IMG/VR virus record: IMGVR_UViG_2740892106_000010
Source of the DNA: a virus
Taxonomy: Duplodnaviria > Heunggongvirae > Uroviricota > Caudoviricetes
Direction: 5' to 3' (one strand)
DNA length: 40,357 nt
Below, piece after piece: positions 5,026 to 34,689 of the stretch. The translations under genes were made by a program, and so were the position numbers. The number at the start of each line of letters is the position of its first letter. Position 1 is the first letter of the stretch. Under the pieces are notes generated by a model. The model was not told the DNA's origin. It did no database searches and was given only the letters and a program-made list of their open reading frames with translations.

Positions 5026-5102
5026 TTACCGTTGAGGTAATAATTATGCGTATTTGGTTTGATGTCAATAGATATGAGTTAAAAAAATTACCCATTAGGT
5101 AA
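5026..5102. promoter_or_regulatory. Leftward early promoter bracketed by two TTACC-N5-GGTAA palindromes
   Basis: Perfect palindromes at 5026..5040 and 5088..5102; on the minus strand a consensus -35 TTGACA (plus coordinates 5063..5068) and a TAATTA/AATTAT -10 about 17 bp downstream, with the -10 abutting the 5026 palindrome. Confidence 0.55.
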
Positions 5103-5114
5103 TAGTATAGGCAA

Positions 5115-5138
5115 TAAAAAAGCCGCCAGAAGGCGGCT
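5115..5138 (-). terminator. Rho-independent terminator after the repressor gene
   Basis: GC-rich hairpin AGCCGCC-agaa-GGCGGCT followed on the minus strand by a T-run, just downstream of the stop at 5160. Confidence 0.6.
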
Positions 5139-5159
5139 TACTTACTGAAAAATATGATT

Positions 5160-5744
5160 TTATTGTTTGTTTTTTTCGTTCTGGTTGATGACAAATTCAA
5201 TGTAACTTTCGATCTTTGCTTTCTCGGTTTCGGGTAACAATGCGTAGCGCGAGCGGTCATAGTTGATGGTCGCAGGGTCGTGCGGGTGAATCAGTAATTC
5301 ATAGCCGTGACGCCCGAATGCTGATGCAACATTCTCCAGGGTGGAAATGGAAACACTGACCTCATTGTTTAACAGGCGGCTGATTGTCACCTGGGCGACG
5401 CCGGATGCGCGGTGAAGTTTTCCCTGAGTTGAAAGGTCGCGGCTTTCGCTCATCCAGCGTTCCAGGTTGTGAGCCGCCAGCTGACCAATGTCGCTTGGGC
5501 CGACAGGCTGAAAACCTTCCTGAGAAAGCGAGCGATCGATATCAAGCCAGTTACGTGGTTTATTGGCGGCAGCTTCAATTTTTCGCGCAACCTGGTCGCC
5601 GATAACCTTCTTGCCAAGAGCCCAGCGGTTTACCAGATTTGCCTGAGTTCCAAGTTTTTCTGCCATCCGCGTCTGAACACCATTGAATTCACGGTCGATC
5701 AAGTCGTTGAGATTTTGCCTGCGGACGTCCTGGATACTTTTCAT
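5160..5744 (-). CDS. Prophage repressor candidate with two helix-turn-helix (XRE-type) domains and no peptidase S24 domain
   Basis: 194-aa ORF; two HTH-like segments (QTRMAEKLGTQANLVNRWALGKK and VAQVTISRLLNNEVSVSISTLENVA); divergent from a cro-like gene with operator-like palindromes between them; no Ala-Gly/Ser-Lys autocleavage module evident. Confidence 0.7.
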   Translation of the reverse strand: MKSIQDVRRQNLNDLIDREFNGVQTRMAEKLGTQANLVNRWALGKKVIGDQVARKIEAAANKPRNWLDIDRSLSQEGFQPVGPSDIGQLAAHNLERWMSESRDLSTQGKLHRASGVAQVTISRLLNNEVSVSISTLENVASAFGRHGYELLIHPHDPATINYDRSRYALLPETEKAKIESYIEFVINQNEKNKQ

Positions 5745-5799
5745 TTTCTGGAAAATCGCCTCATATATGAATCAGTAGATGATTCAATTTAAAGCAATA

Positions 5800-5862
5800 T
5801 TACCCAACAGGTAAATGCACCTCATGGGTAACTATCCTTGATTTTTGTTACCTTATGGGTGA
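5800..5862. promoter_or_regulatory. Immunity-region operators between the divergent repressor and cro-like genes
   Basis: Three adjacent sites: TTACCcaacaGGTAA (5800..5814, perfect), GCACCtcatgGGTAA (about 5817..5831, degenerate left half) and TTACCttatgGGTGA (5848..5862, one mismatch); a TTGATT -35-like hexamer lies between them. Confidence 0.6.
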
Positions 5863-5898
5863 ATATTTATTATCTGAAATAAATATCAGGCAATAGCT

Positions 5899-6129
5899 AT
5901 GAGCGATAACGGACATTTCGATTTCAAAAAGCACTGGCTTGCACTTACTCCGGATGAGCGTGAAGCCTTCGCACAGGAAGCCGGAACGACGAGTCACTAT
6001 ATCCAGACTCACTTAACAGGTAAGCGCAAAATGCCAGGTAAAGTATTGATGAATGGGCTTTTTAAAGCCTGTAAAACAAGACAATGGCTGCGCTCAAAAG
6101 CAGAACTGGCATACTTCTTCTACTCATGA
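5899..6129 (+). CDS. Cro-like small HTH regulator
   Basis: 76-aa ORF divergent from the repressor; HTH-like segment AQEAGTTSHYIQTHLTGKR; followed by an intrinsic terminator. Confidence 0.55.
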   Translation: MSDNGHFDFKKHWLALTPDEREAFAQEAGTTSHYIQTHLTGKRKMPGKVLMNGLFKACKTRQWLRSKAELAYFFYS

Positions 6130-6151
6130 TATCCAGCTACAACCCTCTGTA

Positions 6152-6174
6152 GACCGCCACCCGGCGGTCTTTTC
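6152..6174 (+). terminator. Rho-independent terminator after the cro-like gene
   Basis: Hairpin GACCGCC-accc-GGCGGTC followed by TTTTC. Confidence 0.6.
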
Positions 6175-6184
6175 ATATCTATTC

Positions 6185-6199
6185 GTACCTCAAAGGTAA
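6185..6199. promoter_or_regulatory. Operator-like site GTACC-N5-GGTAA (one mismatch to the TTACC-N5-GGTAA palindrome)
   Basis: Lies between the cro terminator and the downstream replication genes. Confidence 0.4.
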
Positions 6200-8086: not shown

Positions 8087-8163
8087 TTACCTGTTTGGTA
8101 ATAAAATATTCTAAACTCTATTGATTTCGTGTCTTATGTGGTTTTTAATTACCTCAGGGGTAA
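8087..8163. promoter_or_regulatory. Promoter bracketed by two TTACC-N5-GGTAA palindromes upstream of gene 8167
   Basis: Perfect palindromes at 8087..8101 and 8149..8163; between them TTGATT (-35-like), a 17-bp spacer containing ATGTGGTT, and TTTAAT (-10-like) abutting the second palindrome. Confidence 0.55.
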
Positions 8164-19711: not shown

Positions 19712-20047
19712 ATGTCAGGTGAGAAACCAAGATACCGCGTTCTGCGCCTCTCTCATATCCATAACACTCTGTGGCCGGAGGGGGCAGAAATCGAATACGA
19801 AGGTGAGCCTGGTAGCGCACTGGAACCTGTTAACGATGCAGCCAGACAGGCAAAAGCAAAAGTTGCAGGAAAGGTGTCAATGGCAGCAACCAGCACCAAA
19901 ATCATCAACGATGTGTCAGATGATGGTGAACTGGATAAGCTCCGTGAAGAGTACGAATTGCTCTTTAACGAGAAGCCACACCATAACGCCAAAGCAGAAA
20001 CGCTCCGCGAGAAGATCGCAGATAAGCGTAAAGAACTGGGCGTGTAA
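19712..20047 (+). CDS. Hypothetical structural-region protein
   Basis: ATG at 19712 with AAGGTGA RBS (track start 19703); followed by an intrinsic terminator. Confidence 0.45.
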   Translation: MSGEKPRYRVLRLSHIHNTLWPEGAEIEYEGEPGSALEPVNDAARQAKAKVAGKVSMAATSTKIINDVSDDGELDKLREEYELLFNEKPHHNAKAETLREKIADKRKELGV

Positions 20048-31060: not shown

Positions 31061-31621
31061 ATGAAGGCAATTATATTTTTTGTTTCAATATTGATGTCTG
31101 CATTTTCTTTTGCAGGGCAAAATGTTAAATGCGAACTTCAATACTTTGGAGATAGCGATAAATTTAAGGTAACTCAGTTTTCTTTTATGGGGATTCCATC
31201 TGATTCATACCTTTATACCTGTGCCGACTGTGGAGGCATCCAGATAAACGTGTTCCCATCTATTCAGACTGTTGCTTCCTACTCATTTGAAAACAACATT
31301 GATTTCGAAAGGAAAATCAATGCTGAATACAACAGAAAAGACATAGCTAAACTTGAGATGGAAAACGTTACTCAAGGCGGGAGAATAAAATATTCAATCA
31401 CCGATACTGGTTTGGCAGAGTTTTACCCAGAGGGCAAAAAGATAAGCTACCTCTACTTTTTAGCCAAGCAACAAAATGGTAAAGAACAAGTAGGTTATTC
31501 AGGATTTGTTACCTCTAACGGGGATAAGTCATGCTCAATTATTGCGACATATCCAGGAAAAGAAATTTCTTTTCTGGGAAGTAAATCTTTAAGCTACTTT
31601 ATGAATCATATATCAATGTAG
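31061..31621 (+). CDS. Secreted protein of unknown function (AT-rich moron)
   Basis: 186-aa ORF with N-terminal signal peptide (MKAIIFFVSILMSAFSFAGQ); markedly lower GC than flanking virion genes; followed by a strong terminator. Confidence 0.6.
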   Translation: MKAIIFFVSILMSAFSFAGQNVKCELQYFGDSDKFKVTQFSFMGIPSDSYLYTCADCGGIQINVFPSIQTVASYSFENNIDFERKINAEYNRKDIAKLEMENVTQGGRIKYSITDTGLAEFYPEGKKISYLYFLAKQQNGKEQVGYSGFVTSNGDKSCSIIATYPGKEISFLGSKSLSYFMNHISM

Positions 31622-31911: not shown

Positions 31912-32457
31912 CTATTCCTTCCATTTATCAGAAAAAAGATCTTCTTCTAAAGGCATTGGTTCTGTTTTTGTTTTCTCAAAGAATTGATAACTGATAGTGA
32001 TTGCTGCCTCTTTAAACTCTTCTTGCTCAGTTATGTTGTGGGCATCTGCGTCAACAAAAAACATAACCAGCGCATCACGATTGTGATTTACCGAATAAAC
32101 TAAAAAGCAATCACTTGTTGGTATGCATTTTACTTGCACAGACGCTATATTTTTCCATGCATCCCAAGATGATTTTTTACCAGTGTGTTTTTTATCACTA
32201 TATTCTGGAATATAGTCTTGGTTATCGACATGAGTATGCCTGACATTTAGTTTAAGCATTTCTGTCGGACGAGCAAATGCAGCATCTTTACCAAGAGATG
32301 GATGGTATCCCGTTTTCCAATACTGGGTAAAGGCATCAGATACTTTCTTCAGCTCAAGATCAGATGCACAAAGGGCCGAGAAATTTTGCGTATGCAATAC
32401 TCGACCCTTATATCTGACAATTTGATTTTTATCATTCTGCGACGCAGACGAACTCAT
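31912..32457 (-). CDS. Hypothetical protein (AT-rich moron, 181 aa)
   Basis: ATG at 32457 with AAGGA RBS (track start 32484 is TTG); AT-rich; no recognisable motif. Confidence 0.5.
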   Translation of the reverse strand: MSSSASQNDKNQIVRYKGRVLHTQNFSALCASDLELKKVSDAFTQYWKTGYHPSLGKDAAFARPTEMLKLNVRHTHVDNQDYIPEYSDKKHTGKKSSWDAWKNIASVQVKCIPTSDCFLVYSVNHNRDALVMFFVDADAHNITEQEEFKEAAITISYQFFEKTKTEPMPLEEDLFSDKWKE

Positions 32458-32611
32458 AATTTTCCTTATTGTTACGAGAATCAAAGAAAGCGCGGGATAC
32501 GCGACTTGCGTGATCTTTTGTCATAGTAACTTTTACGTACTCTACGCTTCCATTGAAAGAACGTCTTGCGGCAGCTTGCGCTCTACGCATCTGCAATTTT
32601 TCGTTTCGCAT
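32432..32611 (-). CDS. Small basic protein (59 aa) overlapping the start of the downstream gene
   Basis: ORF below the track cut-off with GAGGT RBS; overlaps the 181-aa gene by about 26 nt in another frame. Confidence 0.25.
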   Translation of the reverse strand: MRNEKLQMRRAQAAARRSFNGSVEYVKVTMTKDHASRVSRAFFDSRNNKENYEFVCVAE

Positions 32612-32671
32612 GACATTACCTCATATCTCATAAGTTCATTACACGGATTAATAAAAATGAAACCAATCCGT

Positions 32672-32714
32672 TTACCCTTGAGGTAATAGTACGCTATTCA
32701 CCCACAGTCTGCAA
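32672..32714. promoter_or_regulatory. Leftward promoter with overlapping TTACC-N5-GGTAA palindrome
   Basis: Perfect palindrome at 32672..32686; on the minus strand TTGCAG (-35-like), a 17-bp spacer and TACTAT (-10-like) abutting the palindrome. Confidence 0.45.
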
Positions 32715-32758: not shown

Positions 32759-33493
32759 TCAGAAGAACCCTGCCTTGTCGTTGATGTACTCCGCGTGCGT
32801 CTGGATATCACGCAGGCATTTGCTCACACCAACGATGTAGCAGAACATGGTGGTCAGCTCCGCCGCCGCGCCCGATACGTCGTGCCCGTCGTCCTGTAAC
32901 TGGTTCAGCAGATTCATCAGCAGTGAGTTCTCCGTCAGGCCGAGAACACCAGACGGAGAATGAATCAGACTGCGGTAGCCGGGCTTCAGTGGGGCACTGT
33001 ATTCTTTTTTGTCTTCCAGCTTGATCGCCTCCATAATGGCGGGCATGAATTTTTCAATTACCTGAGTGGCCTTTGATAAATCAGCTCCACCTGAGAGACG
33101 AACATCTCCGCTGACATTTGCGGGTTTTCTGTCGAAGTAGCAATCTTCCAGTTTTTCGAAGACCTCCCACGCTTTTTCAGTCTCAAGAATTTTCGCATGT
33201 CGTGCTGCACCGCGAGCGGTCCATAAGAAAAGATGACTTACTTTTGGTGCAATATTAAGCAAACCTCTTTGAGAGGACTCGTTCTTAAATGCTCGTAATT
33301 CTTCGCCTATCAGCTTGAAACAATGTTTTCCCTCAATGAATCGATCTGCATTTCGTTGATAGTTTTGACGAATCAGTTTGGGTTCTGTGTCATACAAATC
33401 AGCAAGCATTTCTGTAGTCATTACAGGGATGTTGCAATGAGTTGTTATCGGCAACTTATCAATAGCTATATTACGCATTTTCATTGCCTCCAT
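32759..33493 (-). CDS. Antirepressor-like protein (ORF6N/Rha-type N-terminal domain plus C-terminal domain)
   Basis: 244-aa ORF; N-terminal region (IPVMTTEMLADLYDTEPKLIRQNYQRNADRFIEGKHCFKL) resembles ORF6N/Rha antirepressor domains; C-terminal about 70 aa is paralogous to the small protein encoded at 34292..34549. Confidence 0.65.
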   Translation of the reverse strand: MEAMKMRNIAIDKLPITTHCNIPVMTTEMLADLYDTEPKLIRQNYQRNADRFIEGKHCFKLIGEELRAFKNESSQRGLLNIAPKVSHLFLWTARGAARHAKILETEKAWEVFEKLEDCYFDRKPANVSGDVRLSGGADLSKATQVIEKFMPAIMEAIKLEDKKEYSAPLKPGYRSLIHSPSGVLGLTENSLLMNLLNQLQDDGHDVSGAAAELTTMFCYIVGVSKCLRDIQTHAEYINDKAGFF

Positions 33494-33977
33494 CTTTCAC
33501 GACGAAATAGCAATTATCTTTATAATCTAACTGGATGAACTTTATGTTTTCAGGGAGTTTTACAGAAAGAGTTTTTGCACAAGCAAAACCAAAATCTGCG
33601 CCAGAAGCATCCATATACCTTAATAATTGTTTTAATGCTGAAGGAGAAAAAGTATCTACCTTCACCTCAACAGGGTAACCATCTTTTGTTTTTAGGTCTG
33701 GTTGACCTGGTCCACCAAGTATTTCAGCGTTAAGGTATTTTGCTATTTCTGGATAAGCGTTGTATTCAGAGCGTAGTTTTGCCTTGTTATCGACTGCTAG
33801 TTGCATAAGATGATCAAACAAATTGGTATCTAAATCTGCCCCTTCATCCCACATTCTATTTCTACAGCTAATCAATTCACTGACCAGTGGTGCACTTTCT
33901 TGCCTTAGCATAAGAAGGAGTGGAGAATTAGAAATTAACCAATACAGATCGTCGTTTGAGATTTTTTGGCCTGGCAT
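33471..33977 (-). CDS. Hypothetical protein with PD-(D/E)XK-like motif
   Basis: 168-aa AT-rich ORF with GAGG RBS; D-x(n)-EVK motif (DGYPVEVKVD); overlaps the start of the Ant-like gene. Confidence 0.45.
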   Translation of the reverse strand: MPGQKISNDDLYWLISNSPLLLMLRQESAPLVSELISCRNRMWDEGADLDTNLFDHLMQLAVDNKAKLRSEYNAYPEIAKYLNAEILGGPGQPDLKTKDGYPVEVKVDTFSPSALKQLLRYMDASGADFGFACAKTLSVKLPENIKFIQLDYKDNCYFVVKDGGNENA

Positions 33978-34132
33978 AGCGATACCTCTACTAGTAAGTT
34001 ACCCACCACCGCAACGCCAATTGCTGGTGGTGAACTGGACAAGGTTGGCGTACCGGCCTAGTAGGTACCGGCGCACCTTTCGGTGCCCCTGCCCAGCCCA
34101 CCATAATTCGGATATGACTGTGCTATACGCAT

Positions 34133-34154
34133 AAAAAAACCACGTCTGGCGTGG
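34133..34154 (-). terminator. Rho-independent terminator (minus strand)
   Basis: Hairpin CCACG-ccaga-CGTGG followed on the minus strand by TTTTTTT. Confidence 0.55.
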
Positions 34155-34245
34155 TATGCGCCTACTAGTAATCCGGGACGCCAATCCCGGCACTGGATTT
34201 TGCCAGTGCCCGATTACTATGGCACAAGAGGAGTGCGATGTAAAT

Positions 34246-34288
34246 TTACCGCAAAGGTAAATATAAGCACTCCATTTGGTAATTGCAA
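34246..34288. promoter_or_regulatory. Leftward sigma70-like promoter with overlapping TTACC-N5-GGTAA palindrome
   Basis: On the minus strand: -35 TTGCAA (34283..34288), 16-bp spacer, -10 TTATAT (34261..34266), then the perfect palindrome TTACCgcaaaGGTAA (34246..34260) over the predicted start site. Confidence 0.45.
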
Positions 34289-34291
34289 ACC

Positions 34292-34549
34292 TTATCTGGT
34301 TTGTTTTCGTAATTGTTCGGCACAATAGTCGAGATGTGTTTGCAGATCCTGCATAGACATCTGTGAGCTGGTGACGTAGTTAATCAGTGCAGTCAGTTCG
34401 GCAAGTGGGCCATCGACATTAAATCCATCCTTATCGAGATCCCGGAGTAATTTCATCAAGTGCGATCCCTCCACCAGTGACCTGACGCCTCCCGGCGTGT
34501 GAATCCTTTCGGTAAATCCGTCTTCCAGTGGATAGTGATACTGCTGCAT
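34292..34549 (-). CDS. SOS-regulated small protein (85 aa), paralog of the Ant-like C-terminal domain; antirepressor candidate
   Basis: ATG at 34549 with GGAG RBS (track start 34567 is TTG); near-consensus LexA box 22 bp upstream; alignable by eye to residues about 170-240 of the protein encoded at 32759..33493. Confidence 0.55.
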   Translation of the reverse strand: MQQYHYPLEDGFTERIHTPGGVRSLVEGSHLMKLLRDLDKDGFNVDGPLAELTALINYVTSSQMSMQDLQTHLDYCAEQLRKQTR

Positions 34550-34570: not shown

Positions 34571-34586
34571 CTGTATAAATATACAG
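34571..34586. promoter_or_regulatory. LexA (SOS) box
   Basis: aaCTGTATAAATATACAGta matches the CTGT-N8-ACAG consensus with an AT-rich spacer (one spacer deviation from TACTGTATATATATACAGTA). Confidence 0.8.
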
Positions 34587-34624: not shown

Positions 34625-34689
34625 ATTACCTGAAAGGTAATATCTATTCATATTCACAGTCTTTCTATCCATATGTGGTTTTTCAGGTA
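34625..34689. promoter_or_regulatory. Divergent regulatory region upstream of the tailspike gene
   Basis: Perfect palindrome TTACCtgaaaGGTAA at 34625..34639 followed about 32 bp later by ATGTGGTTtttcaGGTAA (34672..34689); on the minus strand a TTGCAA -35-like hexamer abuts the palindrome and leads into the LexA box. Confidence 0.5.

Follow-up and report, generated by a model that had tools for sequence, protein, structure and literature searches.

An SPC32H-type Rep/Ant immunity switch as the very probable function of the rep-cro interval in a phiV10/epsilon15-like prophage

The 154-bp interval between the divergent rep and cro-like genes of the window, that is, the whole 40,357-nucleotide stretch analysed here, can with high confidence be regarded as an immunity switch of the SPC32H Rep/Ant type, carried by a phiV10/epsilon15-like prophage. 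Sequence comparison assigns this system to the SPC32H/epsilon15 Rep-Ant family rather than to the lambda CI/S24 family, and the three operators of the switch belong to a much larger set, at least 13 predicted operators across the prophage. The operator sites and their conservation, the Rep and Ant homologies, the absence of an S24 domain and the LexA box were all computed in this work.

Uetakevirus phages, phiV10, vB_EcoP_ZX5 and TL-2011b among them, match the window at 97-99% identity. A 100%-identical sister E. coli prophage, located between guaA and yfgI, carries int, recET-like, repressor, replication, terminase, portal, capsid, tail, tailspike and lysis genes, and the window is therefore read as a complete phiV10/epsilon15-like (Uetakevirus) prophage. 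phiV10 and ZX5 differ from it in the accessory genes right of the tail genes, which vary between isolates. The immunity region was found in 562 of 5426 complete E. coli genomes, about one in ten. A tRNA-Arg gene (anticodon TCT) occupies 14816-14892 on the minus strand between the terminase and portal genes, as is likewise the case in SPC32H and the sister prophage.

The extent of the interval given in the first-pass annotation, 154 bp between a minus-strand repressor frame and a plus-strand frame for a small HTH protein, was reproduced exactly, and the same rep and cro-like frames were called by PGAP in the sister prophage. No Pfam family was assigned to the 76-aa cro-like protein. The genes and terminators that frame the interval are as follows.

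5120..5139, minus strand: intrinsic terminator 3' of rep, annotated at the same place in phiV10
5160..5744, minus strand: rep, 194-aa non-cleavable prophage repressor, assigned by 5D50_A homology and Pfam
5899..6129, plus strand: cro-like gene for a 76-aa HTH protein, first in the rightward operon (PHROG 35 'transcriptional repressor', E 5.6e-13)
6151..6170, plus strand: intrinsic terminator 3' of the cro-like gene

Rep is 100% identical to phiV10 gp40, which is annotated with two HTH motifs, and to ZX5 ORF21. Phmmer searches against the PDB matched residues 1-190 to 5D50_A, the SPC32H Rep (E 4e-42), and residues 89-190 to 5D4Z_A, a crystallised C-terminal fragment (E 4e-20). The alignment to SPC32H Rep is collinear with residues 160-189 conserved, and the C-terminus of Rep aligns with the SPC32H tetramerisation domain instead of forming an S24 domain with a Ser-Lys dyad. 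Pfam detected HTH_3 in two stretches (E 1.2e-9, the best at residues 106-147) together with a weak YdaS/Cro-type HTH at residues 21-61, and returned no Peptidase_S24 in Rep even at E values up to 1. The proposal that the repressor lacks an autocleavage domain was thus borne out by the Pfam search as well as by the homology to SPC32H Rep. The accompanying proposal of two HTH domains stood in part: two HTH-type Pfam regions are present, but the second is predicted to be a dimerisation domain rather than a DNA reader, because the protein is homologous to SPC32H Rep. A distant homologue of the Rep N-terminal domain, encoded in a Paraburkholderia metagenome-assembled genome (L093, 1201-1413), is fused to a LexA/CI-like S24 domain, and the DNA-binding module of Rep is therefore used with autocleavage in other lineages.

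The family has been solved structurally in SPC32H, with Rep determined alone and bound to Ant (PDB 5D4Z and 5D50). In SPC32H Rep, DNA is bound by the N-terminal domain, dimers form through the middle one, and a p53-like domain at the C-terminus serves both tetramerisation and antirepressor binding (PMC9986798). It binds DNA as a tetramer in which the paired DNA-binding domains come from different dimers, one such tetramer suffices for repression, and the tetrameric Ant splits Rep into dimers (PMC9638917). Overexpression of ZX5 ORF21 abolished free phage, blocked lytic growth and cut the endolysin and holin transcripts by more than 99.9%, with a 99.99% drop for endolysin (PMC9782041).

Between rep and the cro-like gene, three copies of the palindrome TTACC-N5-GGTAA were located together with candidate core promoters, and two further palindromic elements lie within or close to the interval.

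5769-5785: GAATCAgtagaTGATTC, second perfect palindrome (6-5-6) over the predicted rep transcription start, clade-specific
5787..5815, minus strand: candidate rep promoter, -35 TTTACC at 5815..5810, 17-bp spacer, -10 TTAAAT at 5792..5787
5800-5814: O3, TTACCCAACAGGTAA, 0 mismatches to TTACC-N5-GGTAA, rep-proximal and inside the candidate rep promoter
5817-5831: O2, GCACCTCATGGGTAA, 2 mismatches, between both -35 elements
5838..5843, plus strand: -35 TTGATT of the candidate rightward lytic promoter PR, proposed from conservation, with the -10 at about 5861-5867 (GAATAT/AATATT)
5845-5850, plus strand: -35 TTGTTA of an alternative PR, 17-bp spacer, -10 TATTAT at 5868-5873, preferred by a consensus scan
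5848-5862: O1, TTACCTTATGGGTGA, 1 mismatch, over the spacer and -10 of candidate PR
6185-6199: auxiliary operator GTACCTCAAAGGTAA, 1 mismatch, just beyond the cro terminator

The one perfect and two imperfect copies reported earlier for the interval were recovered base for base, with start-to-start spacings of 17 and 31 bp, and the TTGATT element described as -35-like indeed falls between O2 and O1. When the window was searched for TTACC-N5-GGTAA with up to two mismatches, 39 matches were obtained, versus 11.0 +/- 3.4 in 100 dinucleotide-preserving shuffles, none of which reached 39. With two mismatches O2 is unremarkable taken alone, and it is accepted as a site because its position matches perfect sites in three other repressor clades, namely those of epsilon15, SPC32H and Klebsiella.

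The conservation of the interval was followed at three depths. A scan of viral contigs with alignment of Rep yielded 80 metagenomic or viral loci, all encoding the identical protein, which gives a map of single-nucleotide variation within the clade and not of covariation; among 12 variable intergenic positions, none fell in the half-sites and five fell in the N5 spacers. Alignment of the rep-cro region across five clades (the window, Enterobacter phage Tyrion, Klebsiella BUCT711, epsilon15 and SPC32H), whose repressors share 78% (Tyrion), 45% (BUCT711) and 42% (epsilon15 and SPC32H) identity with that of the window, revealed conserved half-sites of O1, O2 and O3, an invariant TTGATTTTT and a conserved AATTTAAA block beside O3. 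A scan of species-representative genomes then added six full-length Rep lineages for a total of 11, and the three-site layout was the same in all six. All 11 lineages retain TTGATT, and its flank varies in one of them, L091, which reads TTGATTTCC. O3 is a perfect palindrome in every lineage, and O1 is imperfect in every lineage, the mismatched half-site differing between clades. For O2, five of the 11 lineages, those of the epsilon15, SPC32H, Klebsiella and Citrobacter types, have a perfect site, another has one mismatch, and the site is more degenerate in the remainder, the window included. The 6185-6199 operator has a one-mismatch counterpart at the same position in Tyrion and BUCT711. The palindrome at 5769-5785 is partly kept in Tyrion, absent from epsilon15-type phages and not conserved outside the clade; as a candidate site for the cro-like protein, GAATCA-N5-TGATTC was rejected, since it is unique in the window and not above chance at two mismatches. 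In epsilon15 itself the three rep-cro sites are present (33341, 33358 and 33388, within L003 33341-33402), and the RefSeq record leaves them unannotated.

The promoter assignments are consensus matches backed by conservation. The starts predicted from them, besides that of rep, lie near 5873-5880 (plus strand, cro-like gene), 5033 (minus, leftward early), 8114 and 8156 (plus, middle) and 34253 (minus, second antirepressor module). Whichever PR is taken, its core is overlapped by O1. On the rep strand, a T precedes O3 in 11 of 11 lineages to give TTTACC, followed by 17 bases and then TTAAAT, TTTAAT or TCTAAT. TTTACC-17-TTAAAT is accordingly put forward as the putative rep promoter, with a predicted start near 5780, so that O3 would fill the -35 and the spacer, and O2 would be centred near -44 relative to the predicted rep start.

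With these assignments the predicted topology is that of lambda OR: three operators between divergent promoters, with O1 in the lytic promoter, O2 between the -35s and O3 in the rep promoter. As read from the palindromes, site quality runs opposite to that in lambda, the rep-proximal site being always perfect and the PR site always imperfect in 11 of 11 lineages; palindrome match, which is not affinity itself, suggests an affinity order opposite to lambda's. The lambda-like three-operator layout suggested by the first-pass annotation therefore holds as a conserved topology, but graded occupancy in lambda's order is unsupported, because the best site is always next to rep and the PR site is never perfect.

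A strict lambda-type switch would have Rep dimers fill O1, O2 and O3 in turn, with O2 activating rep and O3 shutting it at high concentration. Such a switch, to which the shared topology and the position of O2 about -44 from the predicted rep start would lend themselves, is nevertheless unlikely. The quality gradient runs the wrong way in all 11 lineages, the spacings are 17 and 31 bp and not about 24, Rep has no S24 domain, and the homologous Rep is reported to be a tetramer whose DNA-binding domains pair across dimers and of which one is enough. Lambda CI thus differs from the repressor of the window in its S24 domain and in acting as cooperating dimers, where the literature describes a tetramer with a p53-like domain for this family, and lambda differs further in lacking the many operators that lie here outside OL and OR.

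In the preferred reading, an SPC32H-type Rep/Ant switch, Rep would read TTACC-N5-GGTAA through its N-terminal HTH, with NLVNRW as the recognition helix. Bound at O1, O2 and O3, it would shut the rightward lytic promoter and limit its own synthesis, since O1 lies in PR and O3 in the candidate rep promoter; this negative autoregulation, like the promoter positions and the joining of sites by a tetramer, we infer, and the tetramer itself, the domain roles and repression on overexpression are taken from the literature. Rep would also act on at least 10 further operators at leftward early, middle, terminase, portal, tailspike and accessory promoters. As Rep would sit at dispersed operators, which precede nearly all transcription units, the prophage would be silenced promoter by promoter and not by a cascade.

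Ten perfect copies of TTACC-N5-GGTAA are present in the window (starts 5026, 5088, 5800, 8087, 8149, 12070, 15215, 32672, 34246 and 34626), versus 0.04 expected from base composition, and all ten are intergenic, although only about 8% of the sister prophage is. The one-mismatch copies at 5848, 6185 and 12088 are intergenic as well, and those at 31423 and 34858, inside genes, are probably noise. The operators outside the switch are given below.

5026-5040: OL1, perfect, directly next to the -10 and transcription start of the leftward early promoter (-35 TTGACA at 5068..5063, -10 AATTAT at 5045..5040)
5088-5102: OL2, perfect, 62 bp from OL1
8087-8101: perfect operator upstream of the middle operon, between the hexamers of TTGATA-16-TAAAAT
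8149-8163: perfect operator at the start of TTGATT-17-TTTAAT (8121-8149), 4 bp before the DUF1064 gene
12070-12102: operator pair, one perfect and one with 1 mismatch, 18 bp apart, immediately in front of the small terminase gene
15215-15229: perfect operator separating tRNA-Arg from the portal operon; the annotated epsilon15 site 2931-2947 is syntenic
32672-32686: perfect operator upstream of a minus-strand 59-aa/YafO-like gene pair
34246-34260: perfect operator at the start of the promoter TTGCAA (34288..34283)-17-TATATT (34265..34260)
34626-34640: perfect operator in the gap from ant to the tailspike gene; its syntenic counterpart in epsilon15 is the annotated site 19895-19911

For several of these dispersed operators, including 34626-34640, no core promoter is evident at the site itself. 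The gene pair behind the operator at 32672-32686 is toxin-antitoxin-like (31912-32686, minus strand), comprising a 59-aa frame and a 190-aa frame with a marginal Pfam match to the YafO toxin (E 1.1e-5).

The dispersed sites are syntenic with repressor-binding sites that are already annotated in epsilon15 (NC_004775), the repressor of which is gp38. Its RefSeq record holds seven 'protein_bind: repressor' features reading ATTACC-N5-GGTAAT, located before terS, the portal operon, the tailspike gene and the middle operon, with three between the leftward early genes and rep, and the position of the 12070-12102 pair is among those annotated 'repressor'. The genomes of epsilon15, Tyrion, SPC32H and BUCT711 hold 13-18 matches each at up to one mismatch versus 0.4-0.7 expected, a 25- to 30-fold enrichment of the motif. 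The Rep operator consensus deduced from these sites is TTACC-N5-GGTAA, or ATTACC-N5-GGTAAT in extended form. Operators were mapped neither in the phiV10 record, for the stretch around the switch, nor in the ZX5 paper (PMC9782041), and when the literature was searched for the half-site strings, the matches were all to unrelated primer sequences.

The putative recognition helix NLVNRW is invariant across the Rep clades. Because the motif is enriched and this helix does not change, operator specificity appears to be shared despite the 42% Rep identity. Five homologues that possess only the N-terminal domain have another recognition helix, and the motif is absent from them; one of the five is fused to S24. 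As all full-length clades keep both helix and half-sites, covariation between the two says little.

These data bear on a second alternative, in which the palindromes mainly serve the cro-like HTH protein or another phage regulator and Rep acts elsewhere. The 76-aa protein is HTH-like (PHROG 35), and lambda Cro shares the CI operators, which makes shared use plausible; as the main explanation, however, this is improbable, more so than the strict lambda switch, as the sites occur at late and accessory promoters that must stay silent in a lysogen, track the invariant NLVNRW helix and disappear where the helix differs, and were given to the repressor by the epsilon15 curators. A third possibility, that no protein binds the repeats and they are short RNA hairpins or palindromes arising by chance, can be dismissed almost entirely: two-mismatch matches are expected about 11 times per window, but the excess of perfect copies, their exclusively intergenic location and the conservation of their positions across genera do not fit chance, and an RNA hairpin with a stem of only 5 bp around a 5-nt loop would be too weak to act.

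The SPC32H-type operators also recur in pairs of fixed geometry. The leftward early pair is 62 bp apart in the window (5026/5088) and 61-63 bp apart in the other ten lineages (L003, L004, L005, L006 and L087-L092), and the middle-operon pair is 62 bp apart in all five genomes examined (8087/8149 in the window). In epsilon15 (L003) the two 62-bp pairs are 32555/32617 and 35907/35969. The pairs are taken to be centred near +1 and -62, since in each of them the downstream site directly adjoins the -10 or start of a well-matched promoter. The 31 bp between O2 and O1 is half of 62, and both distances are near whole helical turns. Operator pairs on the same face of the helix may therefore be bridged by one Rep tetramer in a phase-dependent manner, as a working hypothesis.

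Induction was predicted at the outset to need an antirepressor, and a gene of the SPC32H type was found behind a LexA box.

34292..34549, minus strand: ant, 85-aa antirepressor (PDB 5D50_E 'Anti-repressor protein', E 4e-47)
34571-34586: LexA box CTGTATAAATATACAG, near-consensus, 22 nt upstream of ant

Ant is identical to 5D50_E at 73 of 83 aligned residues (about 88%), and the arrangement of LexA box, ant start and a Rep operator beyond is conserved in SPC32H, epsilon15 and Klebsiella BUCT711. The prediction is upheld because an Ant homologue follows a near-consensus LexA box. On DNA damage, LexA would leave the box before ant, and Ant would be made with no cleavage of the repressor; Ant would then bind the C-terminal domain of Rep, and Rep would leave the DNA. 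Kim and Ryu (2013) reportedly found that SPC32H Rep stays uncleaved on SOS induction and is inactivated by a LexA-controlled Ant. Gifsy and Fels-2 prophages are likewise said to carry non-cleavable repressors inactivated by LexA-repressed antirepressors (Lemire et al. 2011, cited in PMC7380047), and differ in belonging to other repressor and antirepressor families. As a candidate ant promoter, TTGATA-17-TATTGC was rejected, its predicted start lying inside the ribosome-binding site.

Within the C-terminal half of Rep, conservation is highest in the stretch that binds Ant. Identity to the SPC32H counterpart is about 88% for Ant and about 42% for Rep, and because Ant is so much better conserved than Rep, the antirepressors of the group may cross-induce related prophages. 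The ZX5 study gave the anti-repressor label to a Bro-N protein and not to the small Ant (PMC9782041).

A second antirepressor module, with matches to PHROG 1760/450, lies to the left of ant on the same strand.

32759..34209, minus strand: second antirepressor module of isrK, C4, orf168 and an ORF6N-Ant fusion
34133-34209, minus strand: isrK RNA (Rfam, 68.1 bits)
34023-34108, minus strand: C4 antisense RNA (Rfam, 76.7 bits)
33471-33977, minus strand: orf168
32759-33493, minus strand: 244-aa fusion of an N-terminal ORF6N domain (Pfam) and a C-terminal Ant domain

The promoter TTGCAA-17-TATATT reads into isrK, C4, orf168 and the ORF6N-Ant gene, and its predicted start is covered by the operator at 34246-34260. 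The order operator, isrK, C4 and antirepressor is the same in Tyrion. In the sister E. coli prophage, mapping of the RNA genes only gave two isrK-C4 pairs, both of them followed by a gene of an antirepressor family, and no isrK-C4-large antirepressor module was found in SPC32H.

In phage P1, one repressor, C1, acts on many operators scattered over the genome. The second module resembles P1 immI (c4-icd-ant) in having a repressor-controlled promoter and a C4 antisense RNA before the antirepressor operon, here a C4 upstream of the antirepressor gene and a promoter that is predicted to be controlled by Rep. P1 C1 differs in being unrelated in sequence and in using asymmetric sites, where those of the window are symmetric and the primary trigger is predicted to be a separate LexA-gated Ant. 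The module could act as a feedback latch once Ant fires.

A combined model, in which the best operator sits on the rep promoter and the worst on PR, the 31- and 62-bp pairs are clamped or looped by one tetramer through its p53-like domain, and the second antirepressor serves as a positive-feedback latch, is offered tentatively and, taken as a whole, is possible rather than probable. If the latch is true, removal of some Rep by LexA-gated Ant would lead to more antirepressor and would commit the prophage to lysis.

Among known systems, SPC32H comes close in most respects: its Rep is a full-length homologue, rep is divergent from a small HTH gene, ant stands beside the tailspike gene behind a LexA box, and operators occur at the same positions, including a 17/30-bp triplet and the 62-bp pairs. 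It differs from the window, besides the moderate Rep identity, in a perfect O2 where that of the window is degenerate and in N5 spacers that are less A/T-rich. epsilon15 shares the motif and the sites before terS, portal, tailspike, leftward early and middle operons. Much of the system is therefore already known, as publications on phiV10 and ZX5 cover the repressor, structures have explained how the family works and the epsilon15 operators have been annotated. What is added is modest, namely the reversed gradient, the pairing at 31 and 62 bp and the second antirepressor with its predicted Rep control, and the primary papers on SPC32H (Kim and Ryu 2013; Kim et al. 2016) and epsilon15 (Kropinski et al. 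2007) may already describe it.

Conceptually the operator map adds little beyond SPC32H and epsilon15; in practical terms, footprinting, ChIP and reporter experiments can be designed from it directly. The immunity region governs the induction of a very common prophage, some members of whose group modify the O-antigen. Control by Rep/Ant with LexA gating, and not by a cleavable CI, would tell which stresses induce this prophage, and co-resident relatives could cross-induce each other.
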